Virus record (IMG/VR): IMGVR_UViG_3300025927_000001
DNA length: 23,285 bases
Origin: an uncultured virus (IMG/VR IMGVR_UViG_3300025927_000001)
Lineage: Duplodnaviria > Heunggongvirae > Uroviricota > Caudoviricetes
Strand: one strand, 5' to 3'
Position numbers and translations under genes: made by a program. Positions 1,072 through 21,500 of this stretch are shown here, one piece after another. Every line of letters starts with the position of its first letter. Positions within the stretch are counted from its first letter, which is position 1. The notes beneath the pieces were generated by a model. The model saw nothing but the letters and a program-made list of their open reading frames with translations, made no database searches and was not told the origin of the DNA.

Positions 1072-1361
1072 CCCTCACTCCGCTATTCCCGCCCGGGAAA
1101 CTCGTTGCCACACACGGTGGTAGGCAAGTGATGGAACGAATCGGGTACGAAGCATTCGAATACCTGTACGGGCTGCACTGTACCGGCGACTGGGGTGCCG
1201 TGAGTAACTCCGACAAACACGCGAACGACCAAGCGGTGATGGACGGCACCCGCATCATCTCGAAATACGGTGACGGTGCCGACGTCGTGTGGTTCATCAC
1301 CGAAGCCGACCGGAGCCGCACAACCGTGCTGACACCCGATGAGTACCTGAGGAAGGTCTGA
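1068..1361 (+). CDS. Conserved small phage/plasmid protein of unknown function
   Basis: Recognisable pattern LFxxGxxVAT...HxxGDWG...N...GxRIxSxY...WxITEADRSxTTVLxPDEY; ATGA overlap with the ligase stop. Confidence 0.75.
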   Translation: MTLTPLFPPGKLVATHGGRQVMERIGYEAFEYLYGLHCTGDWGAVSNSDKHANDQAVMDGTRIISKYGDGADVVWFITEADRSRTTVLTPDEYLRKV

Positions 1362-1363
1362 TC

Positions 1364-1909
1364 ATGAGTGACCCTCGCCTAAGGTTCGGCTACAACCAGG
1401 GCCTGCCGGAATACGTCGAGGCAGCGTGGGGATGCCAAGCGAACATCAACCCGGACGGCACCATAGACCTGGTGTCGGACCGCATCAGCACCTACGGTCA
1501 AGGCGACGCGGTCAAACGGCTAGAGGCTCGCCTGGACTCGTTAGGACGGGGCGAGCGATGGCGCAAACGGGCTGAGGCGCTTCTAGTCTCCGGGATCATG
1601 GACCCCAAGGTCGCCGCTGAACACGTCCTAGTTGATGACGGGGTTGTTGTAATCAAGGCGAATACCAACAGCTTTGGACACCTCTGCGTCTGCGCGTACG
1701 ACGCATACCAGCGGGTACCCGAACCCGAGATCCCTGACGGGATGCGGGTGTTCCTAGCGCATTACCTGCGGTGGCTAGCCAATGACGACGGGACACACGG
1801 CGGTATGCAATGCCGATGGGACCGGGCTGACCTAGCTGAGCGAGCTGATCGGATCCAGCCAGGGCCAGTCAAGGAATCGCTCGGCGACCTCGTGCAGGAG
1901 ATGCCATGA
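1364..1909 (+). CDS. Hypothetical protein (181 aa)
   Basis: GGAAGG SD-like sequence; tightly packed in the plus-strand operon; protein-like composition. Confidence 0.7.
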   Translation: MSDPRLRFGYNQGLPEYVEAAWGCQANINPDGTIDLVSDRISTYGQGDAVKRLEARLDSLGRGERWRKRAEALLVSGIMDPKVAAEHVLVDDGVVVIKANTNSFGHLCVCAYDAYQRVPEPEIPDGMRVFLAHYLRWLANDDGTHGGMQCRWDRADLAERADRIQPGPVKESLGDLVQEMP

Positions 1910-2180: not shown

Positions 2181-2256
2181 GCGATCACAAATCGGCACTA
2201 CCCGCGCCGGGCCGGACGTCGCCGCAAAGTCGCTGATGCGCGTGCCACCGGGGCTG

Positions 2257-2293
2257 AGTAGCGGGAGCGGGATTTGAACCCGCGACGATTATG
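2257..2293 (-). pseudogene. 3'-half tRNA-Met fragment (T arm, acceptor 3' strand, discriminator); imperfect direct repeat of 2643-2672
   Basis: Minus strand CATAA-TC-GTC-GCGGG-TTCAAAT-CCCGC-TCCCGCT-AC; 2257-2286 matches 2643-2672 at 25/30 nt. Confidence 0.85.
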
Positions 2294-2301
2294 CTCGGCG
2301 A

Positions 2302-2685
2302 GTGGCGTACAAGAACCCCGAGGATCAGAAGCGTGCAGCGCGGCGACACTATGAAGCGAACCGCGCTCAGTACATAGCGCGTGCAGTAGCGCACAATCGG
2401 AGGAATCGTTTGCGCGTGAATGCGAAGGTTCGCGAGTTGAAGTCGGTGCCATGCGCCGACTGTTGCCAGTCCTACCCGTATTACGTCATGCAGTTCGACC
2501 ATCTCGGTGAGAAGCTGTTTGCGATCGGTCGTCGCAGTTCGAGCATGGCCTACCACAAGGTGCTTGACGAGATCGAGAAATGCGAGGTGGTTTGCTCTAA
2601 CTGTCACGCCATTAGAACGTGGCAGCGTCGCCAAACGAACGAAGTAGCGGGAGTAGGATTCGAACCTACGACCTGCGGCTTATGA
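2302..2685 (+). CDS. HNH endonuclease (Zn-binding type), antisense-overlapping the tRNA
   Basis: Basic N-terminal helix, PCADC...MQFDH...EIEKCEVVCSNCHAIRT; TATGCT (2290-2295) 6 nt before GTG2302 suggests leaderless expression. Confidence 0.9.
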   Translation: MAYKNPEDQKRAARRHYEANRAQYIARAVAHNRRNRLRVNAKVRELKSVPCADCCQSYPYYVMQFDHLGEKLFAIGRRSSSMAYHKVLDEIEKCEVVCSNCHAIRTWQRRQTNEVAGVGFEPTTCGL

Positions 2686-2719
2686 GGCCGCCGAGCTAAC
2701 CGAGCTGCTCCATCCCGCC
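2645..2719 (-). tRNA. tRNA-Met (anticodon CAT), initiator-like; CCA not encoded
   Basis: GGCGGGA TG GAGC AGCTCGGTTA GCTC G GCGGC CTCATAA GCCGC AGGTC GTAGG TTCGAAT CCTAC TCCCGCT A folds into a complete cloverleaf. Confidence 0.95.
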
Positions 2720-2724
2720 CAGGA

Positions 2725-2733
2725 ACCCTACCA
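2725..2733 (-). promoter_or_regulatory. Putative extended -10 promoter for the tRNA
   Basis: TGG-TAGGGT (TGn-TAnnnT) with only 5 nt between it and tRNA position 1. Confidence 0.5.
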
Positions 2734-2745
2734 CCCCGTGAACGC

Positions 2746-2801
2746 AAAGAATCGCCCCGTTCCAACCCATTGCTGCTGGGTTGGAACGGGGCGTTTCTTT
2801 T
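2746..2801. terminator. Strong, probably bidirectional intrinsic terminator
   Basis: Perfect 17-bp arms CGCCCCGTTCCAACCCA (2753-2769)/TGGGTTGGAACGGGGCG (2777-2793), 7-nt loop, flanked by AAAGAAT and TTTCTTTT; lies between convergent units. Confidence 0.9.
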
Positions 2802-2832: not shown

Positions 2833-3222
2833 TCAGCCGCGCCGCTTCGCAGGTGTTAGGGAGCTTACTTCGTACCGTTGGGTGGGGATACCAGCGGCCT
2901 GGGCTAAATCCGCGGTGTGGGTGGCGCCACGGGATCCGTCAGCGATGAACGCTAGGCAAAGTTCCGCGCCGAGGGCGACCATTTCAGCGTTACGTCTAAA
3001 TCCAGCGGCTTTGCCGAAAATGTCCCACGCTGCTGGGTGGCGTTCCACGACACCACCCCACGACTCCCAAATCCGTTCGCAAATCGCGTCACCACCCTGG
3101 GGGCACGCACCGGAAACGAGGACCGCGGTGCCGTCACCCCACACCGTTTTCAGGGCCTCATCGATGGTGGCGACGTCGGTCCAGCGGCGGGACGCGGTGA
3201 TAAGGATCCGACGCTGGCTCAC
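2833..3222 (-). CDS. SLOG-superfamily (YspA/DUF2493-like) protein
   Basis: RILITASRRW, LVSGACPQGGD, HPAAW..GKAAGFRRNAEMV, CLAF...SRGA; SD GGAGGT-like (AGAGGTG). Confidence 0.85.
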   Translation of the reverse strand: MSQRRILITASRRWTDVATIDEALKTVWGDGTAVLVSGACPQGGDAICERIWESWGGVVERHPAAWDIFGKAAGFRRNAEMVALGAELCLAFIADGSRGATHTADLAQAAGIPTQRYEVSSLTPAKRRG

Positions 3223-3781: not shown

Positions 3782-4704
3782 GCTGACCTGCCCGTCACTG
3801 CGTACGCGCCACCTGGGGCGGCGTAGTTCACGGTGAGCCCCACCGCGCCGTGCGGTGCCTGCCAGGGCCCGGCGATGGTGTGCGCTTCGACGGTTTGACC
3901 GCCGCCGTGCGCGGTGTGGGTCGCGTCGACGGGTACCAGCGACCCATCCCTGAGCATCCATGACGCTAAATACACGAAAGCTCGGGTGGTGTCTTTGGTG
4001 CGACCACCCCAGTCCTGGCCACCGAAACCGATCGCGCATTCCCCTTCCCACCCACCGGCGAGGTCGAACCCGATATCGAAGTTGCGTTGCGGCCATGTCG
4101 CCGGTGCGCTGTTCGGGTCGGTGGGGGTTGCAGTGGCGGGCAGTTGATCCATCGTGTGGCGGTCCTTACTTTTGGTTTGCGGTGTGGCACTGGCGACCGC
4201 GGTGGCGATGACGTAGTCCCAGGGGAAATTCGGGCCAGGATCGGTGTGCGTGCCATCTTGGGCGCCGATCGTGTAGTCATAATGCCCGATGACGCCTTTC
4301 GATCGGTTCGCTACACCTTGGGGCCCGATATGGGTCAGCGGGATACCACGTGCGTGTGCCCGGTGTGCGAGCCACTGCGCGATCCGGTCGAGCATTCCGC
4401 GGTGCGCCATCCACGTATCACGTGACCACGCAGCGAACCCGGTGCAACAAATTTGGTCGGCCCGCGGGTTGCCGCCCAGCATCGCCCACGCTTCTTGTTC
4501 ATAGGGGACGATTTGGATGGTGGTGGTGTCATCGCAGACAGTGTTGTAGCTAACCTGGTTCGTGGGGTTGGCGAGGAAGTTGGCTAGGGAATCCGCGGTG
4601 GTTGCGCCTTCAGCGGTGTGCACCGCCAACCAGATCACTGATGCGTCGCTTCGGCTGGAACAGTTCGGTGACCACTTAACGTATTCAGTCATATTCCCCG
4701 GCAC
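3778..4704 (-). CDS. Endolysin, N-acetylmuramoyl-L-alanine amidase (Amidase_2 type) with an unrecognised C-terminal domain; start may be ATG4692
   Basis: VHTAEG, EAWA, GVIGHYD, HTDPGPNFPWD motifs; adjacent to holin. Confidence 0.92.
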   Translation of the reverse strand: MPGNMTEYVKWSPNCSSRSDASVIWLAVHTAEGATTADSLANFLANPTNQVSYNTVCDDTTTIQIVPYEQEAWAMLGGNPRADQICCTGFAAWSRDTWMAHRGMLDRIAQWLAHRAHARGIPLTHIGPQGVANRSKGVIGHYDYTIGAQDGTHTDPGPNFPWDYVIATAVASATPQTKSKDRHTMDQLPATATPTDPNSAPATWPQRNFDIGFDLAGGWEGECAIGFGGQDWGGRTKDTTRAFVYLASWMLRDGSLVPVDATHTAHGGGQTVEAHTIAGPWQAPHGAVGLTVNYAAPGGAYAVTGRSA

Positions 4705-4715
4705 CCATTGTCACG

Positions 4716-4767
4716 TAAAAGGAGCGAGGCCAGTGCCCCCGGCGCGAATCGGGGGCACTGGCCTCGC
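4716..4767 (-). terminator. Intrinsic terminator just upstream of the endolysin
   Basis: Perfect 18-bp arms 4724-4741/4750-4767, 8-nt loop, followed by TCCTTTTA on the minus strand. Confidence 0.8.
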
Positions 4768-4781
4768 GTGTGTGGACGCTA

Positions 4782-5090
4782 TCAGGCAGTCGGCGCCGGT
4801 GGCAGGACCAAACCATCGGGCGGCGTCGGCACCGGGTTAGCCGGTGCACCGAGAGCCTTCAAATGCTCAATGACTGGTGCGAACTTCGCGGTGATAGCCG
4901 GGTCGCTAGGAAGGTTCGCGGTAATCCAGTCGGCGATGCGAGTGGTTTCAACCTCAACAGCAGCCAAACCGTCATCAAGAGCAGTCATGTGTTCCTCCAG
5001 TCGTTTAATGCGATGGTCATGCTGGACAACTTGTTGGTGCAGCGCCCGAATGTTGAGCGACTGCATGAGATCCACGAACTGGTTCGCCAT
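4782..5090 (-). CDS. Hypothetical coiled-coil protein (102 aa)
   Basis: SD GAAGGGA; heptad-like IKRLEEHMTALDDGLAAVE; Pro-rich tail. Confidence 0.75.
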   Translation of the reverse strand: MANQFVDLMQSLNIRALHQQVVQHDHRIKRLEEHMTALDDGLAAVEVETTRIADWITANLPSDPAITAKFAPVIEHLKALGAPANPVPTPPDGLVLPPAPTA

Positions 5091-5112
5091 TCAGTTCCCT
5101 TCACCGGGATGG

Positions 5113-5628
5113 TTATTTGCCGCTACGGAGCGCGGCGTAGGTGGCGAGCGCGGCGATGACAATCGTGGCCAGCGCGACGAAGATGGTCCACCCAGTGGAA
5201 AGCCCTGCGCTTTTACCGTCGTTGAGGTTCTGCCGCGTCTCCAACACTTGGAGGCGTTCGCTGTAACGCTCCTCGGCGACAGTCATCTCGGTTCGCGTGA
5301 GACAACCCTGAACAGTGGTGATGAGTTCCTGGATCCGTTCGGTGTTGCGGGTCGTCGCAGCTTCGGCTTCTTGGCGGGTGATGAATTTACCCTGCTCATC
5401 CTTCGATTGAGCACGGAACTCGTTGAGTAGCGTGAGGCGTTCACCGATAGCGGCTTCCGCTTTGTCGACGGCTTCTTTCGCCGCTGTGAGGGCAGCGCTC
5501 ATGGCTTGTTCTTGAGCGTCGAAACGCTGCTGGTAACGCCGGTCCCGTTCGTTAAGGATGGCCACTACGTGGGCGCGGAGCGTGTCAGTGGTCCAGCCGG
5601 ATACGTGCTCTTCCGTCTCACCACTCAT
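5113..5628 (-). CDS. Coiled-coil protein with C-terminal TM helix (lysis-region membrane protein)
   Basis: Long helical region, LNEFR..S.D...FITRQE, C-terminal WTIFVALATIVIAALATYAAL. Confidence 0.8.
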   Translation of the reverse strand: MSGETEEHVSGWTTDTLRAHVVAILNERDRRYQQRFDAQEQAMSAALTAAKEAVDKAEAAIGERLTLLNEFRAQSKDEQGKFITRQEAEAATTRNTERIQELITTVQGCLTRTEMTVAEERYSERLQVLETRQNLNDGKSAGLSTGWTIFVALATIVIAALATYAALRSGK

Positions 5629-12969: not shown

Positions 12970-13638
12970 TCACATAGTAACCGTCTGGGTTACAGTCAAA
13001 GCATCGCCTATTGCCGACAAAGTGGCAGTCGCGGACAATAGAGTCCGGTGCAGGAGGATCCCGGTGGCACCGGTCAAAGTGTCGAATGTGCCCATTTGCG
13101 CGATGGTCACTGGGATCGAATCCGAGCCGTTGACGGTGTATGTGCCGGTCAGCGTGTACGTCGTCGCGCTCGTGGTGTGCGCGAACGCAGCGGCTTGGCG
13201 GATCAACCCACCACCAGCGGTAACAATCTCACCAGTCAAGACAGTGTCCGTAGAGGATGGGGCGGTCGCGGTCGCGGTCAACGCCATGTAAAACACCGGT
13301 GCCTGCCCGGTCATAATGACGAATACCGCCGTTGATGACGGCGTCGACGCCGCGGAACCAGTTGGGGTCGCTGGGGCGTACCACTTGTCGATGGTGAGAA
13401 CGCTTGACGTATTCGAGATGATGACGCCGTACACGTTGCCGGTGGCGACCACGAAACGCCCAGCGTGGGCGTTCACCGACCACGGCGTGCCAGTCGCGGT
13501 TAGTGTTGTCGCGGACGTGGCAGTGGCGGTGCCTGTGTATCCGGCGGTAACACCATTAGCGAGCGCAGCCGCTTGCTTGTCTTGTCCAGTATTGACCTTG
13601 ATTTGAACCAGCCCCTTCGAAATTTTTCGGACATGCAA
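12970..13638 (-). CDS. Tail fibre/baseplate-associated structural protein; true start uncertain (possibly ATC13602)
   Basis: YMALT...TDTVLTGEI...GLIR...GDALTVTQTV resembles tail-fibre N-terminal adaptor modules; Thr-rich insert. Confidence 0.75.
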   Translation of the reverse strand: MHVRKISKGLVQIKVNTGQDKQAAALANGVTAGYTGTATATSATTLTATGTPWSVNAHAGRFVVATGNVYGVIISNTSSVLTIDKWYAPATPTGSAASTPSSTAVFVIMTGQAPVFYMALTATATAPSSTDTVLTGEIVTAGGGLIRQAAAFAHTTSATTYTLTGTYTVNGSDSIPVTIAQMGTFDTLTGATGILLHRTLLSATATLSAIGDALTVTQTVTM

Positions 13639-13672
13639 AAGGCACCGCAGTCCGGAAATGGACTCGGGGGCC
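13637..13672 (-). terminator. Possible terminator/attenuator within the tail operon
   Basis: Imperfect stem GGCCCCCG-AGTCC/GGACT-GCGGTGCC followed by TTTT. Confidence 0.5.
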
Positions 13673-13683
13673 GTGAGAGTTAG

Positions 13684-14016
13684 TTACGCGAGGGTGGGTA
13701 TGTCGTCGAGCGACGAAAGGTCATCCGGTGCGATTGCGTCGGGTGCGGTCGCGTCGGTGGTGTGCGCGGTCACATCCTTGATGGGGCAGCCGTAATGAGT
13801 GCTCAGCTCCACCGCCAGAGCGGTGTCCTCTGACTCCACCCACGTTGGCGCGGTAGCACCGGAATGATTACGCCACACCCCGTCCGGGGCGGTGATCGCG
13901 GTGAATAGTTGCGCGGAGGTCCAATTGTCGGGCAGCACCGCCTGGGTGACTTGCTCACCTTCGAGGACGCGGCCGCCGTCGAGCGCAGCGGGATTACCTA
14001 AACGAACTGATGGCAT
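13684..14016 (-). CDS. Hypothetical protein (110 aa), tail region
   Basis: SD GAAAGG; PDGVW..HS...PTWVES; acidic tail. Confidence 0.75.
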   Translation of the reverse strand: MPSVRLGNPAALDGGRVLEGEQVTQAVLPDNWTSAQLFTAITAPDGVWRNHSGATAPTWVESEDTALAVELSTHYGCPIKDVTAHTTDATAPDAIAPDDLSSLDDIPTLA

Positions 14017-14046
14017 GCCAAATAAGCCTTTCTACGGAAAGTTTTA

Positions 14047-14442
14047 CTACACGACGGCTTCGAAGCTGACTTCGTAAACTTCGTCGATGATTCTTTCGAC
14101 GTATCCCGTGACCGGGTCAGTCATCTCCGCTTGAATGATCACCAGGGGGCACAACCAGTTCAGGGTTTGTGTCGGTGTGACATGCAACTGGACCTGGTCG
14201 GTGACCGTTCCTCCAGCGGTCGCGGTGCCTTGCGTACCGGTCGGTGTGGTGGACCATTCCGCTACCACGGGACTGCGTTGGTAGTTGTTTTGGCCTAGGG
14301 TTCGGCGTTCGTAAAGCGCCCGGGCCACGGCGTGCACGGAATAACCGGTGACGTCCAGGGGCTGGCCGGTGCGGACGCTGGTAATCGAGTTCGCTTCGAT
14401 CCAACAGTCGACGCCTTGCTTAATAACACGCGTCATATCCAC
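14047..14442 (-). CDS. Tail-region adaptor-like protein (resembles BppU N-terminal-type modules)
   Basis: IKQG.D...G.PLDVTGYSVHAVAR...VQLHVTPTQT pattern. Confidence 0.65.
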   Translation of the reverse strand: MDMTRVIKQGVDCWIEANSITSVRTGQPLDVTGYSVHAVARALYERRTLGQNNYQRSPVVAEWSTTPTGTQGTATAGGTVTDQVQLHVTPTQTLNWLCPLVIIQAEMTDPVTGYVERIIDEVYEVSFEAVV

Positions 14443-14473
14443 GCCACCGCCTTCATTGGAGTAGGGCCCCGAT

Positions 14474-14986
14474 TTAGGCGGGTACGGTCACGTTTTGGTT
14501 CGGTGCCGCGGTGATCGCGAATTTGATTGTCACTCGCGCTGGTCCGTTTGTCCCTGTACCACCGATAGTGTTACCTGAGCTGCGTAGGACGTTGACGGCG
14601 GCGACGGTGACCGGGTACACCTCGGCGCGGTTCGCGGCGACATCACCACCATCAAGGAACATGATGTAACCCGTCGTGCCGGGCGGTAGTGACGCGCGAA
14701 CATCAACACCGGTTTTCGACGTGTAAAACGTCAACGTCGAATCCGGGGTCGAGAGAACACCCGGGGCTTTCGTGCGAAACGGGGTGTTGATGTTTTGTGT
14801 GTCGAAGAACTCGGCGTCAACGACCCACCCGGATAGGTCATTGAGTTCGGGAGTGAGGTTGATGCCGTTATTCATTTCCGTTCGTGTGGGCACGAGCGTC
14901 GACGCGGCGATGACGGGGAGGTAATACACGCGGGTGATAGCAACGTCGAAGTACCGGGTGCTTGCCGTGATCGCGGGAGTTGGCAT
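14474..14986 (-). CDS. Major tail (tail tube)-like protein
   Basis: SD GGGAGG; STRYF...YYLPVIA...PTRTE...G.NLT...SGW...DSTLTFY...GYI...GGDV...VYPVTV...FAIT..P..NVTVPA resembles Streptomyces-prophage tube proteins. Confidence 0.8.
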   Translation of the reverse strand: MPTPAITASTRYFDVAITRVYYLPVIAASTLVPTRTEMNNGINLTPELNDLSGWVVDAEFFDTQNINTPFRTKAPGVLSTPDSTLTFYTSKTGVDVRASLPPGTTGYIMFLDGGDVAANRAEVYPVTVAAVNVLRSSGNTIGGTGTNGPARVTIKFAITAAPNQNVTVPA

Positions 14987-15041
14987 TTACCGCCTCCCAG
15001 TGTTTTTTCCAGCGTGGTTAACGGTGTTCGTTCACTGGGTT

Positions 15042-15266
15042 TCATCCCGCGGTGTCGGCGAGGGATCCGATCGAGTCAGCAGCCGTGACACTAACGGTGG
15101 TCACATCTGGGGCCATTGATGGCCGCAGCAGCGGTGGGGGTCCCGGTGGGTAGAACCGGCCGGGCCACCCGTGGATGTCGCATTGCCGAACGTCGGGACC
15201 ACCATGGGCGCGGCACATCGGATCGAAGTCCGGGGTGCACGTGCAACAAACACAAGGGTTCATCAA
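15042..15266 (-). CDS. Small Cys/His-rich hypothetical protein
   Basis: Start overlaps the upstream stop; CVCCTC...CRAH...CDIH; Pro-rich tail. Confidence 0.55.
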   Translation of the reverse strand: MMNPCVCCTCTPDFDPMCRAHGGPDVRQCDIHGWPGRFYPPGPPPLLRPSMAPDVTTVSVTAADSIGSLADTAG

Positions 15267-15775
15267 ACCACCCGAGCCAACGCCATAGAGGTCCCGATCT
15301 TTAAGGTCGTCGTGCCGCTCGCCGCGAGCTGAGCGAAGCCCAGAACGATGTTCCCTGAGGCTGTGATCACGGAAATGAAACCAGCGATCCGGGCCATCAT
15401 CATGGTGCCCGTGGCGACACCACCGAAGGACATCGTGGCAGTGGCAACCTGATCTGTTACTGATTGGACGATCGCACCTGATGTGGTTGATGTGCCGCTA
15501 GCAATTCCCCAGGGGGCGGCTCGGATTGTGGTCCCGGCGGGAGCAGTGAACCGGATGACGACGTCCCCCGCGGACGGGGCGTCGTAAATGATTTGGGAGT
15601 CGAATATATAACCAGCGTTAGCGGACAGCGCGAACGTGAGGTCCGGGCAGTCAGTGAAGGTGGTCACCGTGCTGGACACATCCGCGAGCAGCATTTTCGT
15701 ATTACGGGTGTTGTCGAAAGCCGTGGTCAGTAGCGCCGCGGTGGTGTCTTGCCCAGCGAGGAACGGTGTGAGCAT
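15263..15775 (-). CDS. Minor tail protein (170 aa)
   Basis: SD GAAAGGGA; FLAGQ..TAALL N-terminus; DLTFAL.AN..Y...FTAPAG...FAQ pattern typical downstream of the large minor tail gene. Confidence 0.8.
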   Translation of the reverse strand: MLTPFLAGQDTTAALLTTAFDNTRNTKMLLADVSSTVTTFTDCPDLTFALSANAGYIFDSQIIYDAPSAGDVVIRFTAPAGTTIRAAPWGIASGTSTTSGAIVQSVTDQVATATMSFGGVATGTMMMARIAGFISVITASGNIVLGFAQLAASGTTTLKIGTSMALARVV

Positions 15776-15786
15776 GGTTCCCTTTC

Positions 15787-18543
15787 CTACAAGCCCATTT
15801 TGGCTGGGCGGGCGAGCGATACCACAGCTCCCGCTGATTGCGCCTTAACGATGCCGTTAACGCTGCGGACGACAGTGAACGTTTGCGGTGACGTGGCGCC
15901 CGTGACTGCGGTGACGTTCATGACTTCGCCGGCTACCCGGATGGGGATGGGCATGTCACCGGCGGCTCTAGTCCAGGTTTGTCCCACTGATGTCACCGAC
16001 AGGCTGGTGGCGGAGCTGGTCACACCTGACGTGAGAGTGGAAGTGTCGCTATCAATTTTGCGTTTCCCGACTGTGTCCAGTTGCAGCAACGCGTAAGGCG
16101 ATTCGGGGGCGCAATTGAAGGAGATGGTGTGTTCGAAAGCGCGGATCGTTTCGGAATAGCCCCGGACTATTTGGGAGATTGTGTCCGGGGTTTGACCTGT
16201 TTTCGGGTTAGTGATGGTGATCCGGTCGTCGACATCGACGGTAAGGGCGGCGGCTTCCAAGCCAGCGGCGACCACTTGTGGGCTCGCGAGGTTCACTTTG
16301 ATCGTGGGGTACCGGGGTTCGTCGGGGGTGCCCATGGTCATGCGCCAAAACGCGAGGTCGGGGAGCTGGTCGTCGAACGCGACGACGAATGTTTCCTGGG
16401 TGCTGTACCGGCCTGCGCCACCAGCTGACGGGTCGGTGACCGACATGCGCCCCGTGAGGAGCTGGGCTTCAGCGGATGACCCGTCCCGGCGGATAGCGGT
16501 CACATCGTTGCGAGTTAGCTGGTCATCATCAACGGGTTCTAGTGGTGGCGCGACCTGGCCCGCGGTGTAATCCAACGATAGGGTCGGGTCCTGGGAATAC
16601 AACGAAGTGCGAGTGCGGAAGGCTAAGCCGAAATCACCTCGGGGTTCGTACAAGGTCCCAAGGTCAGCGTCAGCGGCTTCATCGAGCAGCGTCAGCAGGG
16701 ATTCGGGTCGTTGTGCGCCAGCGGCAGCGGTAGTGGTCCTGTCCCCATCACCGCTAACAGTGATTCCCTGTTGGGCACACAAGCGCACAATTCGCGCACC
16801 GGTGGTTTCCCCGGAAACGAGTGGATCACCGGTGCGCGCGTTCAAAGCGGGCGCGGTGTCATATATTTGGGTCACCGCTTTCCGGATCGCGATGTGCCCC
16901 ATGGTGACGCCTTTGCATATCTGCAAAGGGTCAGCGACAAAAGTAACGACTTGACCAACAGTGCGGCCAGTGAGAGTACCTGAAGCGAACTTACCGGAAG
17001 TCTGCCCGACATCGAGACTCTCTATCGCCCAGTCGACGTTCGCGCCGTTTTGAGTAAGGTCCAAACCGAGCAACGTGTGAGTGTCGATCAAACCGAAAGC
17101 GAACGGCCCCGCACTCATAATACCAAAACCTGAGGAGTCACCGGCGTTAATGAGGATGGAACCGGGGGGGGTAAGAGTGCTAGTGCCGATGATCCAGATC
17201 GCGGCGGTCCCGGTGGTGACCAACCAAAACAGTGGAGTCCCATCAGTCAGCGGTGTTGACGGGGTGTGAATGTAAAACCGCAACGCGGTTTGCCCAGTGA
17301 CGGTGTAGTTGGCTACCCCGCCGCGCCACGAACCCACATCCATCACCGGTAGCGGTGCTGAGCCGGCCAGCGATGTATCGGACGCGAAAGTGGTTTTCCC
17401 GGATAGCGACATATCCGGGGCGCCAGGGAGTCCAGACGCGATCGTGGTAGTGGTGGTGCCGTCCTCGCACGGCCAGTAAGCGACCACATCACTGGCCAGC
17501 TCATTGGTGTAGGCGCGGCGCAGTGTTGACAGCAGCGGTCCGGTGCCCTGCCCGAGACGGCGACGCAACCCCGACGCCTCAACCTGAACGTAAACGTCGG
17601 TGCCGGTGATGTCCCAGCGTTGCGGCCAGTTGGACACTTCACCGAAAAAACGGGGGACCCGGATGGTGAGGTCGTCGTAGGAGAACACAATCGGTTTGGT
17701 GTTCGTGTTGCCGGTGGCGACCCCGGAGCGGATCCCAACCCATCCGGTGAGCGGGTCGGTGCTCAGGCGCCCGGTGACGAGCCATCCGAACGGTTCGGGG
17801 CTCGCGACGGCCCAGATCTTCGCCCGCAGGGTTTGGCCCTCGGAATGGAACCGGACCCGCAGTGCTTGTGCACTGGAATGGGTGAGCCCGGTGGCCACCG
17901 CGGCGGCGACAACAGTCCCGTCGTAGTGGACGATCCCCAGGGTGATCGCGCCGCTGGTGGCGACGCTGACCCGCGCCATGTAATAGTCAGTGGTGCTCTG
18001 ACCCCGCAAGACCACGTTCGCTGGCTCGACCGGCCCACCAGTGACCGAGGTGAACGGCAAGCTCACCGTGACTCCGACATCAATGTTGCGGTACGACGCG
18101 GCCGGTAGGTACGCGATCCGGTGGGCTGCCGCGACGGGCACCGATTGGGTGCCGAACCCACCGGACACCGCGAAATCACTCGCGGCGACGGTCCCGCCGA
18201 GACCGCTGGTGGTGTAGACGTGCCCGGTGTCGGCGGTGCCCCACCCGTTGGCGACGGTGCGAGCGAAAGTGTCGGAACCGGTTTGGACGGCCACCCGCAG
18301 TGGGGTGTTCCTACCCAAGGAACCGAAATAGGCGCCAACAGGGTTACGGGGACTGTAATTCCCGCTTCTATTGTTCAGGGTCAGTAAACACCGGGACGGT
18401 TCCGGGCTGCTTTGTTCGTCACGCCGGCCCCGGCTGATGGTGATGCCATCCCGGTTGTAAACATCCGGGGTGACATCAACCCACCCGCCGTTGACGAACA
18501 AATCGACTTTCGAGACTCGGGGGACCGCGGGAAACACCGCCAT
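15787..18543 (-). CDS. Large minor tail protein (hub/baseplate-type, 918 aa) with inserted lectin-like domains
   Basis: Directly follows the tape measure; WVDVT.DV...ISRGR.DE...LTLNNRSGNYSPRNP, VAYWPCEDG, RNDVT, EPRYP, TVVRSVNG. Confidence 0.9.
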   Translation of the reverse strand: MAVFPAVPRVSKVDLFVNGGWVDVTPDVYNRDGITISRGRRDEQSSPEPSRCLLTLNNRSGNYSPRNPVGAYFGSLGRNTPLRVAVQTGSDTFARTVANGWGTADTGHVYTTSGLGGTVAASDFAVSGGFGTQSVPVAAAHRIAYLPAASYRNIDVGVTVSLPFTSVTGGPVEPANVVLRGQSTTDYYMARVSVATSGAITLGIVHYDGTVVAAAVATGLTHSSAQALRVRFHSEGQTLRAKIWAVASPEPFGWLVTGRLSTDPLTGWVGIRSGVATGNTNTKPIVFSYDDLTIRVPRFFGEVSNWPQRWDITGTDVYVQVEASGLRRRLGQGTGPLLSTLRRAYTNELASDVVAYWPCEDGTTTTTIASGLPGAPDMSLSGKTTFASDTSLAGSAPLPVMDVGSWRGGVANYTVTGQTALRFYIHTPSTPLTDGTPLFWLVTTGTAAIWIIGTSTLTPPGSILINAGDSSGFGIMSAGPFAFGLIDTHTLLGLDLTQNGANVDWAIESLDVGQTSGKFASGTLTGRTVGQVVTFVADPLQICKGVTMGHIAIRKAVTQIYDTAPALNARTGDPLVSGETTGARIVRLCAQQGITVSGDGDRTTTAAAGAQRPESLLTLLDEAADADLGTLYEPRGDFGLAFRTRTSLYSQDPTLSLDYTAGQVAPPLEPVDDDQLTRNDVTAIRRDGSSAEAQLLTGRMSVTDPSAGGAGRYSTQETFVVAFDDQLPDLAFWRMTMGTPDEPRYPTIKVNLASPQVVAAGLEAAALTVDVDDRITITNPKTGQTPDTISQIVRGYSETIRAFEHTISFNCAPESPYALLQLDTVGKRKIDSDTSTLTSGVTSSATSLSVTSVGQTWTRAAGDMPIPIRVAGEVMNVTAVTGATSPQTFTVVRSVNGIVKAQSAGAVVSLARPAKMGL

Positions 18544-21500
18544 TTACGCCCCCAATGCTTTCTGCACATCACCGCCTTGCGCCCGGACGGCCCGGCGGAG
18601 GATTTCGCAGAGGAACGCGTCTAGGGACGCGCTGCCGCTGCCGATGGTGAAATGGATAGGTGGTGGTTTTCCACCACCAGGTGCTGGTGTTGGTGTCCCA
18701 GCGTTGAGTTTCATGTCATTGGCGAAGTCAGCTGCTCCGTAAGGCGCAGTTTGGGCTCGGGTCCGACCGGCTTGGGTGATACTCGCTGTGGACCCAGGTC
18801 CCGCTGACACGTTGCTGGTGACCATCCCCGCGACGGATGACGTACCGGGAAAAAGATTCGCTGAAGGCGGCCCATTGGGTGTACCGCCGCCACGGCCATG
18901 GCCGTGTCCGAACCAGCGCCAGATATCGTCGTCGTCGTCCCAGGACCGCCCTCCACCACGCCCAGCCACTCCGCCACGCCCAGCACCGCCACTAGTACCG
19001 GTGGTGCCACCAGACAAAGTCGACCGTAAATTGATGGAGCCGGGAGGCATTGAACTCACCGGGCCATAAATCGTTTCGTAACCTGATGGCATCTGTGAGT
19101 TCGGTTCATCCCAGTACATCCAATCCCCGGACCCCGAGACTCCGCCAGAGGCCATCGGAACAACACGTTTACCCATCCGACGGGCAGTTTCACTGAGGAT
19201 CGCGGTAGACACACCTGAGTTGTTAATCGGAATGAACGCTTCGTCCCCGATTGGCCGGTCCCCGATGAGGCGCATCGAGTTCGGGGGCACAATCGCCGCC
19301 GACGCCGCTGACATTGACGTGAAACCACTCGCCATGGGCACGATCCCGCCGCTGGCCATTCCCGACACGATCATCCCGCCAGCACCGGCTTGAACGGTTT
19401 GAACCGTCACGGTCACAGTTTTGTTTTGCAACGCGTTCAATTGTTGCTGGACTTGCTGGATGGCTTGGAGGGCTTGACTGTTGTTCGCGGTGATCTGTAT
19501 CGGCTGGGTTTGTTTGACCGCGTTGACTTGCGTGGTCGCGTCAGTCGATCTTTTGGTGACGTCGGTAATGTCGGCGGTGAGCTTGATCGCCGGTGGTGCC
19601 ACTGCGGCAGCGGTGATCTGGGTCGTCGCATCGGTTGTTTTCGTGGTGACGTCGGTGATGTCGGCGGTGAACTTCGTCGGAGCTGGTTGCTGGACTCCGG
19701 TGATCTGAGCCTGTGCCGTTGATGTCTTCGCGGTGATATCGGTGATGTCGGCGGTGAACTTAAACGGGATGGGTTGCTGGACCCCAGCAATAGCTGCTGA
19801 AGCCTCACCAGCGCCAGCTACAAGTTGGCTGGGATCACCGACGAACTGCGTGATCGGTGGCGTTGGTACCGACCCGATCGCCGTGCTGGCTTGGCCCACG
19901 CCAGCTACAAGATTACTAGGATCTGCAGTGAAAATCACCGGAGCGGGTTTGTGCACTCCGTCGATCGCGGAATTGACCGCTCCCATTCCAGTCTGCACAC
20001 CGGACGGGTCCACGGTGGGTTTGAGTTGCAGTAACGGGTTGGATTTCACATAGTTCTGAGTCAGGGTATTGAGCGAACCGTTCTGTCCGTCAAGTTTCCC
20101 CGTCGCAGCCTGAATCTGCACGCCTAGGTCGGCGTGTAGCTGGGCTAGCTGTTGGTTGCTCTGACCGTTCTTCTGCGCTTCTGTTTCCCACGATTGTGCC
20201 TTGTTGACGAGGTCGATGATGTTGGTGACGTTCTTTTGGCCAGCGGCGGTGTTGGTGTCAGTCGCGGTCCCGTTGTCTTTGATCGCCTGGGTTACCGTGT
20301 CCAGCTGAGATTTGAAGCCGACTTCCGCGCTGAGCGCACTGCCCATTTGCGTCGTTTGGTCCCGCATAGACTTAGTAGTCGCGTCCTGGGCCGTCTTGAG
20401 TAGGCCCTGCTGCGTTGTTAAGTTCTTCGCCGCATCGTCCATTTGCTTGAACGCGGCGACAGCCTGCGGGCTATCGGTACCAAATTTTTGCACCGAAGTG
20501 AGATAGTTATTCTGCGCCGCTGTCAAGTCGCTCTGCGCCCGCGTAAGCGGGTCCATCGCGGCTTTCATTTTATCGACTTCAGCGGTGACCTCCGCGAGCT
20601 TTGGTTTGGCGATGCCTAGAGCGGCGCTCAGGGCCCCGATCCAGTTACCGAACGAGTGTGCTGACGCATCCGCGTCCGCTGCCTTTAGCTTGTTGATCGC
20701 ATCGGTGGCTTCCTGACCACCCTTCATGATCGCAGCGGCAGCGGTGTCGACAGCGGACTTGTGGTTCTGCCACTCGATTGTTAACGCAACGAGCGCGGCG
20801 CCAAGGATTGGTAGCGACCCTCCGAGCCCGGCCACAACAGTGCCGACCTTACCCATGGTGGATTCCATGGCCGCACCGGCTGCCGCTGATCCAGTGAACT
20901 TCGTGGTCATCGCTTCGGTGGCGGTAGCTATTTCGTTCATTTTCAGGGCGAGGCCGCCGCCCTCAAGGAACGTCCACGCTGTACCGAGCGCTGTTACTGC
21001 TGTCGTAGCACCAGTGATGGCGCTGGTTAAGGAACCGGTAATGGTGGTGACTATTCCGCTGATGCCCTGGACGACTTTTGCGAGCAACCAAGCATCAACG
21101 AACGCCTGCACAATCGTAGTGAGGGCGGGAACGTTTTCGATCAGCCACCGGATTCCGTCCGTGACGGTTTTCAATGCCTGCAAGAACGTCGGGCCGAAGC
21201 CTGGTGCAGCAGTGATGTCCGCGATAATCGCGACAACGTTTTTCAGGGAGTCCCACAGCTCTTTAACGGCCGTTATACCCGTTTGGATCCACTGTGATAG
21301 CTGCCCGGTCTCCTTAGCCTTAGAGACGAATTCGGCGGCTTTCGCCGCCGCGTCGGCAAAATGCTGCGCGAGTTGGGGAAGGAATTGCGATCCAACCTGC
21401 GTGATATCGGTGATGATTTGCAGTATCGGTTTAACGGCACCAGCGAGGTTGGACGCGGCTTGTCCAATGTTAGCGAAAATGCTTTGCCACGCGGAGACTG

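Follow-up and report, generated by a model that had tools for sequence, protein, structure and literature searches.

A probable relic of tRNA allele replacement: an orphan tRNA-Met 3' end next to an HNH endonuclease gene in a tailed phage

Homing endonucleases cut genomes that lack them and are copied into these, together with flanking DNA, during repair. The 3' ends of tRNA genes are classic integration targets, and the borders that integrases leave at prophages and genomic islands carry duplications of such tRNA 3' ends. Among the systems resembling the locus that we describe here, the SegB protein of phage T4 is a GIY-YIG homing endonuclease encoded within the T4 tRNA cluster; its recognition site includes a conserved T-arm motif, it drives the inheritance of itself and of the neighboring tRNA genes, and it is absent from related phages (PMC2330249). 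HNH-type enzymes are present in the tRNA region of phage T5 (cited in PMC2330249). In fungal mitochondria, mobile endonuclease ORFs bring along a foreign 3' end that becomes the working end of the invaded gene, while the native end comes to lie beyond the ORF, where it is recognized by its near identity to the gene of a relative; such 3'-end swaps are described for atp6 of Allomyces macrogynus and for atp6, atp9, cox2, and nad3 of Glomus (PMC3630166). In the tRNA arrays of mycobacteria and mycobacteriophages, HNH genes are the commonest protein genes (PMC5966550, PMC6409571). HNH genes in phage tRNA clusters, co-conversion of tRNA genes by homing, and endonuclease-mediated 3'-end replacement are therefore already known. 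Our literature searches found no report of an orphan tRNA end in a phage left by an antisense-overlapping HNH or homing endonuclease. Here, we present a phage locus at which an HNH gene has probably arrived together with a foreign tRNA-Met allele, so that the tail of the resident tRNA gene was left behind as an orphan relic.

The window, by which we mean the entire stretch of 23,285 nucleotides that was analyzed, is phage DNA, as judged from the tape measure, major tail, endolysin, and DNA ligase proteins encoded among the 25 ORFs scanned. The genes for the tape measure, major tail, and minor tail proteins, the endolysin, and a SLOG-like protein occupy the minus strand between about 23.2 and 2.8 kb, whereas a helix-turn-helix protein, an ATP-dependent DNA ligase, several small ORFs, and the HNH endonuclease are encoded on the plus strand (positions 4-2685). 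The two blocks, with early genes on the plus strand and late genes on the minus strand, meet at a terminator hairpin, which is predicted to close the plus-strand HNH transcript (Table 1). The source is a high-GC tailed phage with one initiator-like tRNA-Met gene, the sole tRNA gene of the window, at the point where its early and late genes converge. The order fragment, HNH gene, tRNA gene recurs with zero differences in contigs of three other public runs (X2, 2167-2971; X3, 2172-2975; X4, 2228-2682), and it is consequently not an assembly artefact. Neither an HNH-less form of this phage nor any joints were present in the contigs of four runs; rare variants are dropped from contigs. The nearest sequence record (G001) matches the window at 13325-18579 only. 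Elsewhere in the window, a minus-strand gene (15787-18543) located between the gene for the tape measure protein and those for the tail encodes a protein of 918 aa that matches PHROG 5313 over its full length (E 8.6e-185) and also a PHROG labeled as phosphodiesterase. Directly after the stop codon of the 181-aa ORF, positions 1909-1926 form a slippery-looking run of eight A, three bases, and six C.

Table 1. Coordinates of the features at the tRNA-Met/HNH locus (positions refer to the window)
Feature	Position	Strand	Remarks
181-aa gene	1364..1909	+	Left synteny anchor common to the window and L011; 69% amino acid identity
Orphan 3' end of the native tRNA-Met	2254..2286	-	29 nt of tRNA (2258-2286) plus 4-nt 3' trailer (2254-2257)
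15-nt leader	2287..2301	+	Between the orphan and the HNH start codon
HNH endonuclease gene	2302..2685	+	127 aa, GTG start; fills the space between the two tRNA-end copies
Intact tRNA-Met(CAT)	2644..2719	-	ARAGORN; Rfam RF00005, 66.5 bits (gathering score 29)
-10-like hexamer TAGGGT, candidate tRNA promoter	2725..2730	-	Ends 5 nt upstream of tRNA position 1
Terminator hairpin, two-way, strong, 17 pairs	2753..2793	both	Between the tRNA and the minus-strand late genes; conserved with L011
SLOG/YAcAr-like gene	2833..3222	-	Pfam PF10686, E 2.2e-7; right anchor, common to L011 and L013

A search with the 181-aa protein led us to a contig of a related phage (L011) that is syntenic with the window on both sides of the tRNA gene. 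The DNA identity amounts to 75.6% on the left (window 1361-1870 versus 3986-4501) and to 79.3% on the right, and the SLOG/YAcAr-like protein is 86% identical to its counterpart on that contig (L012). In the terminator, changes relative to L011 (about 5197-5237) occur on both arms with the pairing of the stem kept. L011 lacks the HNH gene and possesses exactly one tRNA-Met gene, which agrees with that of the window in place and strand. The same holds for a more distant relative (L013), which likewise carries one tRNA-Met and no HNH gene. Of these three syntenic tRNA-Met genes, only that of the window is thus accompanied by the nuclease. The small ORF beside the tRNA gene is specific to each phage: in L011 it occupies the gap between tRNA and terminator (about 4711-5186), and in the window it lies to the left of the fragment (1956-2180), so that the tRNA sits between variable cargo slots in both phages.

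The intact tRNA-Met of the window is predicted to be a functional-looking gene with a cloverleaf as its minimum free energy fold (-32 kcal/mol). Its 3' end, read in the tRNA sense, is GTC-GTAGG-TTCGAAT-CCTAC-TCCCGCT-AC, with GTAGG/CCTAC as the T stem. Bacterial initiator tRNAs are distinguished by an unpaired 1:72 position and by an anticodon stem with three G-C pairs at its foot. The label tRNA-fMet, which an earlier note on this DNA had used, fits the D arm and the 3' end, both of which are initiator-like and resemble those of bacterial initiator-like genes found in a pattern scan; it does not fit G1, which stands opposite U72, or the anticodon stem (GCGGC/GCCGC), from which the three G-C pairs are missing. 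In the tRNA-Met of L011, these three pairs are present, and G1 is as well. The start GGCGGG, with G1 opposite U72, occurs in all three phages (window 2713-2719; L011 4665-4671; L013 4041-4047), and the bacterial genes that we inspected and that share the 3' end have C or T at position 1 and look like initiators. Judged from these sequences, the phage tRNA-Met may derive from an initiator tRNA, with its 1:72 pair closed. With regard to its expression, a consensus scan for sigma-70 promoters returned none between positions 1800 and 3300. A -10-like hexamer is found at an identical distance from the tRNA in the relatives, as TAGGGT in L011 (4677-4682) and as TAAGCT in L013 (about 4029-4034), and TANNNT is the actinobacterial form of the -10 element. 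Since such a hexamer stands exactly 5 nt before the tRNA in all three phages, the transcript could start at or beside the mature 5' end.

The second tRNA 3' end of the window, the orphan, comprises the variable-loop GTC, the whole T arm, the 3' strand of the acceptor stem, A73, and C74. In the tRNA sense (2286 down to 2258), it reads GTC-GCGGG-TTCAAAT-CCCGC-TCCCGCT-AC. It had been placed at 2257 to 2286; the upper limit is correct, and the tRNA homology begins one base later, at 2258. The two copies of the 3' end (2258-2286 and 2644-2672) flank the HNH gene and match each other at 24 of 29 positions. That their T stems differ by compensatory changes, as noted earlier, is borne out: four of the five differences are two base pairs swapped on both sides (U50-A64 and A51-U63 in the intact gene, C-G and G-C in the orphan), and the fifth is a G/A exchange in the T loop. 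The acceptor strand TCCCGCT is indeed the same in both copies, as is the AC tail. Chance accounts for neither the repeat nor the pattern of its differences, as a local alignment scores 33 while 200 shuffles of the upstream region reach a maximum of 21 (0/200 attain 33), and just 662 out of 2,000,000 random sets of five substitutions keep full pairing with at least two pairs changed on both sides. Past position 2286, we found no significant tRNA homology in a comparison of 2287-2340 with the rest of the L011 tRNA (703 of 1000 shuffles score equally well or better); an extension of the orphan into the anticodon arm, considered on the basis of a TTATG in common, was rejected by this same comparison. 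The left junction of the inserted segment is accordingly placed at 2286/2287. The exact 30-mer of the orphan has zero matches in viral contigs, and DNA searches of isolated phages, near and distant, yielded generic tRNA-Met matches only. About 50 nt past the 3' end of the orphan, a weak terminator-like hairpin with a T-rich tail (2193-2209, minus strand) may be the former terminator of the resident tRNA.

The HNH gene runs into the intact tRNA on the opposite strand: over its last 42 nt (2644-2685) it is antisense to the tRNA, with a TGA stop codon that falls within the complement of the anticodon loop. The deduced protein matches PHROG 3106 (E 8.9e-23), PHROG 2255 (E 5.5e-19), and three further HNH PHROGs; a Pfam search gave no match for it and, for its relative from locus L014, PF01844 at only E 0.4. 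Eight residues (C51, C54, D66, H67, C98, N100, C101, and H102) are invariant in an alignment of 24 sequences, and with them the catalytic His, Asn, and His and the two CxxC zinc pairs are conserved (CxxC...DH...CxNCH). The structure model attains a pLDDT of 83 overall, with residues 121-127 below 50, and the tail past about residue 112 is unconserved in the 24-sequence alignment. The C-terminal tail encoded by the antisense strand of the tRNA hence looks like accidental read-through. A sequence search of solved structures gave a chance match only (E 0.66), and Foldseek returned nothing for the model at E <= 0.001; its best value is E 0.32, and the weak top rows (E 0.3-1.3) list the HNH of Cas9, Cap5, T4 endonuclease VII, and Gme HNH. 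The best match with VIA is likewise weak (Z 4.2, rmsd 3.1 over 60 residues) and concerns the Gme HNH nicking enzyme (4h9d_C).

Comparison of the two 3' ends with the related phages reveals which of them belongs to this lineage. The orphan together with its trailer agrees at 32 of 33 bases with the 3' end and trailer of the only tRNA-Met of L011 (4593-4625), whereas the region of the intact tRNA (2643-2733) is just 78% identical to the L011 tRNA, which is the level of the flanking DNA, and 87% identical to that of L013. Over the 30-nt 3' end, the orphan matches L011 at 28 positions and the intact tRNA at 26, so that the displaced copy is the one closer to the relative; of the two mismatches of the orphan, one falls on the junction base. 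Over its 5'-terminal 46 nt, the intact tRNA shows about 11 differences from L011 (a manual count on the alignment). Because the orphan matches L011 so much better than the intact tRNA does, we regard it as the native 3' end of the lineage, displaced and young. On this sequence evidence, the tRNA in use carries an allele other than that of the lineage, with the GTAGG/CCTAC T stem as the HNH-linked version, and, with two relatives to infer from, the whole intact tRNA rather than its 3' part alone is probably foreign. Two related phages were available for this assignment, which rests mainly on L011. L013 has a third T stem, GCAGG/CCTGT; as the T stems differ in all three phages, compensatory change in place does occur among them, and no position can be assigned to the right-hand junction. 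To the right of the tRNA, homology to L011 is regained from position 2747 on.

The earlier note had considered that both halves stem from functional tRNA alleles, and this part of it gains support: the allele of the orphan exists as the whole tRNA-Met of L011, and both T-stem versions recur in whole tRNAs of bacteria and phages. Scanning with a degenerate pattern of the T arm and acceptor strand uncovered at least 120 bacterial loci. Among the 123 matches listed, GTAGG/CCTAC appears at least 34 times and GCGGG/CCCGC at least eight times, several other paired T-stem combinations are represented at least 11-20 times each, and the T-loop base is G in at least 56 and A in at least 67; the exact orphan allele is absent from these 123 matches. 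In viral contigs, the same pattern hit 37 loci, 35 of which are whole tRNA genes as judged by eye, and one of these (L220) contains the exact orphan allele, loop A included, in a whole tRNA. Given this variety, this family of tRNAs shows free covariation between stem positions 50-51 and 63-64; two homologous working genes are expected to differ just as the two 3' ends of the window do.

Relatives of the HNH protein are commonly neighbors of tRNA genes. In a set of 54 non-redundant loci, that is the window plus 53 others left after 11 duplicates had been dropped from nine viral and 55 metagenome matches, a tRNA gene overlaps the HNH ORF or lies within 60 nt of it in 40 loci, three loci have tRNAs elsewhere, and 11 have none. 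In the closest relative (L014; 54%), the HNH gene has the same geometry, as it enters a tRNA-Met on the opposite strand from the 3' end and overlaps it by 20 nt; no donor or closer HNH, above 54%, turned up in viral contigs, metagenome contigs, or isolated phages. The tRNA-Met of L014 (2838-2914) has three clean T-stem pairs (TTGGG/CCCCC) and an unpaired C1 and is possibly impaired, and the TGA stop codon of the HNH gene lies in the complement of its T loop. In Phabba, an isolated Mycobacterium phage, an annotated HNH (53.9%) overlaps the 5' end of a tRNA-Met within an array of more than 30 tRNA genes, and the HNH of Myrna (41.2%) occupies another slot than that in Phabba. Since the tRNA-Met of Phabba represents a different type and is encoded on the strand of the HNH gene, we do not claim a fixed tRNA-Met target. 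In the HNH tree, neighbors of tRNA-Gly(UCC) and of tRNA-Arg(UCU) form clades of their own, and the pairing of the window with L014 is not resolved; as kin share neighbor labels, the tree is no proof of target specificity. A large metagenomic group of this clade (L015-L018, L020-L022, L024, L025, L029, L030, L034, L039, L043, L054, and L067) has the HNH gene antisense between tRNA-Pro(GGG) and tRNA-Gly(UCC), with a stop codon that ranges from overlapping the 3' end of tRNA-Gly to ending about 36 nt short of it. Two loci (L208 and L212) that seemed to place an HNH beside a tRNA-Met were discarded; the tblastn match was a spurious one from translated antisense tRNA, and no HNH is encoded there.

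We likewise inspected the DNA upstream of the HNH genes for further orphans. Among the 20 other loci with an antisense tRNA at the 3' end of the HNH gene, not one contains an orphan fragment. Eight significant upstream matches (L015, L016, L020, L021, L022, L027, L029, and L030) turned out to be the neighboring tRNA-Pro, a gene that in L027 is truncated at the end of the contig. In L014, 47 nt upstream of the HNH gene resemble, by eye, a decayed copy of the tRNA end, with the same offset, end motifs in common, and a would-be stem that is broken; the resemblance is not significant, and we rejected it, as scores just as good were reached in 66 of 1000 shuffles and in 64 of 1062 windows.

The observations reported here lend themselves to a model that we consider likely to be correct in its main outline, the arrival of the HNH gene with a foreign tRNA-Met allele. 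A free-standing HNH homing-endonuclease gene would have entered the site along with the tRNA-Met allele of another phage; as the HNH reading frame, on the opposite strand, extends into the tRNA and ends there, the nuclease gene and the 3' half of the tRNA would travel as a unit. On the right, the join would have been made by homologous repair upstream of the tRNA, a step suggested by the return of L011 homology at 2747 and by the TAGGGT hexamer in common. On the left, an illegitimate join at 2286/2287, within the variable loop of the resident tRNA, would have stranded the last 29 nt of the resident gene and its trailer about 360 bp downstream as the orphan. The paired T-stem differences between the two 3' ends would exist because each end had been shaped in a working tRNA before the event, and the orphan would be too recent for much decay. 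Most likely, then, the orphan is a relic without a function of its own. We infer that the HNH protein would have caused the event by cutting the resident tRNA gene, and the location of the cut is part of this inference. In this reading, the window holds the footprint of a homing endonuclease that moved a tRNA allele between phages, a clean and datable one, with the nuclease gene and both ends, old and new, inside 470 bp.

A duplication in place offers another route to two tRNA ends. Here, the HNH gene would have inserted into the resident tRNA gene and duplicated about 30 bp as a target site, with no foreign allele involved; the working copy would then have drifted by compensatory changes, and the orphan would have kept the ancestral state. 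The direct repeats flank a segment that holds the HNH gene alone, the T stems differ among all three related phages, and the -10-like hexamer common to L011 suits a resident 5' part, all of which is in keeping with this scenario. However, the unselected copy would have had to change more slowly (at most 2/30 relative to L011) than the selected one (4/30, with two double changes), and the 5' part of the intact tRNA has about 11 differences from L011 in 46 nt while the orphan 3' part is identical at 32 of 33 positions. Moreover, the HNH frame of L014 also ends in a tRNA-Met, in keeping with a unit that brings a tRNA end of its own along. We therefore regard duplication in place as unlikely.

The orphan could instead be a working RNA element, be it that its T-arm-like hairpin serves as a processing or stability signal of the tRNA transcript, that it pairs alternatively with the 5' acceptor strand, or that it forms a hairpin in the leader of the HNH mRNA. 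Its hairpin is intact, and on the plus strand the region 2250-2310 forms a longer stem around it (-23.5 kcal/mol, z -2.15; 7 of 200 shuffles fold equally well). In the minimum free energy fold of a 480-nt minus-strand RNA, the 5' acceptor strand pairs with the orphan region, but this fold is no better than those of shuffled sequences (z -0.86; 24 of 100 fold equally well). The earlier note had offered, as one of two alternatives, that the fragment is still selected as an RNA structure; such a structure is seen in this window alone and in none of the 20 other HNH-clade loci that abut an antisense tRNA. Stem-breaking changes in homologous fragments, which had been named as the outcome that would speak against this idea, are what the corresponding spot of L014 displays, although the look-alike there is not significantly tRNA-like in the first place. 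It remains true that random decay would not produce the compensatory pattern, but selection on the orphan is not required for it, as little decay has occurred so far: the match to the functional gene of L011 explains the intactness of the orphan by its youth. Weak selection may act on the orphan, of which we have one sequence with at most two changes relative to L011, one of them at the junction. On balance, a working RNA element appears very unlikely to us. That the orphan is an att relic (an attP core, attL, or attR) of an HNH-independent, integrase-mediated integration at tRNA-Met is highly improbable: tRNA 3' ends are used as integration targets, two viral contigs (L214 and L219) have, by eye, a 3' end of this tRNA type without a recognizable 5' half, possibly att sites or orphan ends, and the L013 contig encodes a tyrosine integrase, but that integrase lies roughly 18 kb from the tRNA, none is encoded by the 25 ORFs scanned in the window, which represents 23 kb of the phage, the 93% complete L011 contig has neither a tyrosine integrase nor a serine recombinase, the L011 counterpart of the orphan is a whole gene, the segment between the repeats measures about 390 bp and holds the HNH gene only, and the exact orphan allele is absent from the 123 bacterial matches listed.

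Returning to the replacement of the resident allele by an HNH-linked one, we can ask why the two T stems differ where they do. It is conceivable, though we hold it to be rather doubtful, that this HNH clade homes on the T arm and variable loop of tRNA genes and that the linked tRNA-Met escapes cutting through its recoded T stem. Immunity to the HNH by recoding, which the earlier note had raised, is plausible in view of SegB, an analogous case in which the T arm is part of the recognition site. If this were true, the locus would present a fresh, one-sided homing event in which the target (the orphan), the invader (the HNH gene), and the immune allele (the intact tRNA) are preserved together, and in phage tRNAs the compensatory evolution of stems and the turnover of alleles would be driven by selfish nucleases. 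With the GCGGG and GTAGG versions of the T stem, two substrates are at hand for assays of tRNA gene cutting by this widespread, tRNA-associated HNH clade and of protection by recoding. For genome scans, the locus also counsels caution, as perfectly compensatory differences between a gene and a fragment close by can come from allele replacement and need no selection on the fragment.

When viewed against the known systems, the borders made by integrases share with our locus a partial tRNA 3' end downstream of a complete tRNA gene that incoming DNA has reconstituted; they differ from it in that we found no integrase, in that the element measures about 390 bp and contains a single nuclease gene, and in that both the tRNA and the relic lie inside a phage genome. 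The HNH genes of the mycobacterial and mycobacteriophage tRNA arrays belong, where Phabba (53.9%) and Myrna (41.2%) are concerned, to the same protein clade and lie similarly tight against tRNA genes, but the arrays show co-occurrence among many tRNA genes, whereas the window has a single tRNA, an antisense overlap, and a displaced tRNA end. The likeness to SegB is that of a free-standing nuclease gene amid phage tRNA genes that is absent from related phages; moreover, the T-arm site of SegB corresponds to the region that is alike in both 3' ends of the window (GGTTCRAATCC), and the differences between these ends adjoin it. SegB is, however, a GIY-YIG enzyme of demonstrated activity encoded between tRNA genes of the same strand, whereas ours is a predicted HNH enzyme, and the part of PMC2330249 consulted here describes no orphan tRNA end for it. 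The mobile endonuclease ORFs of fungal mitochondria resemble our locus in that two 3' ends flank a nuclease ORF, the displaced copy is the one nearer to the gene of a relative, and the copy within the gene looks functional. They differ in that they reside in mitochondrial protein genes and encode LAGLIDADG or GIY-YIG enzymes, whereas here a phage tRNA gene is concerned and an HNH gene on the opposite strand; what is synonymous change in the fungal genes corresponds, in the phage tRNA, to the compensatory pairs of the T stem.
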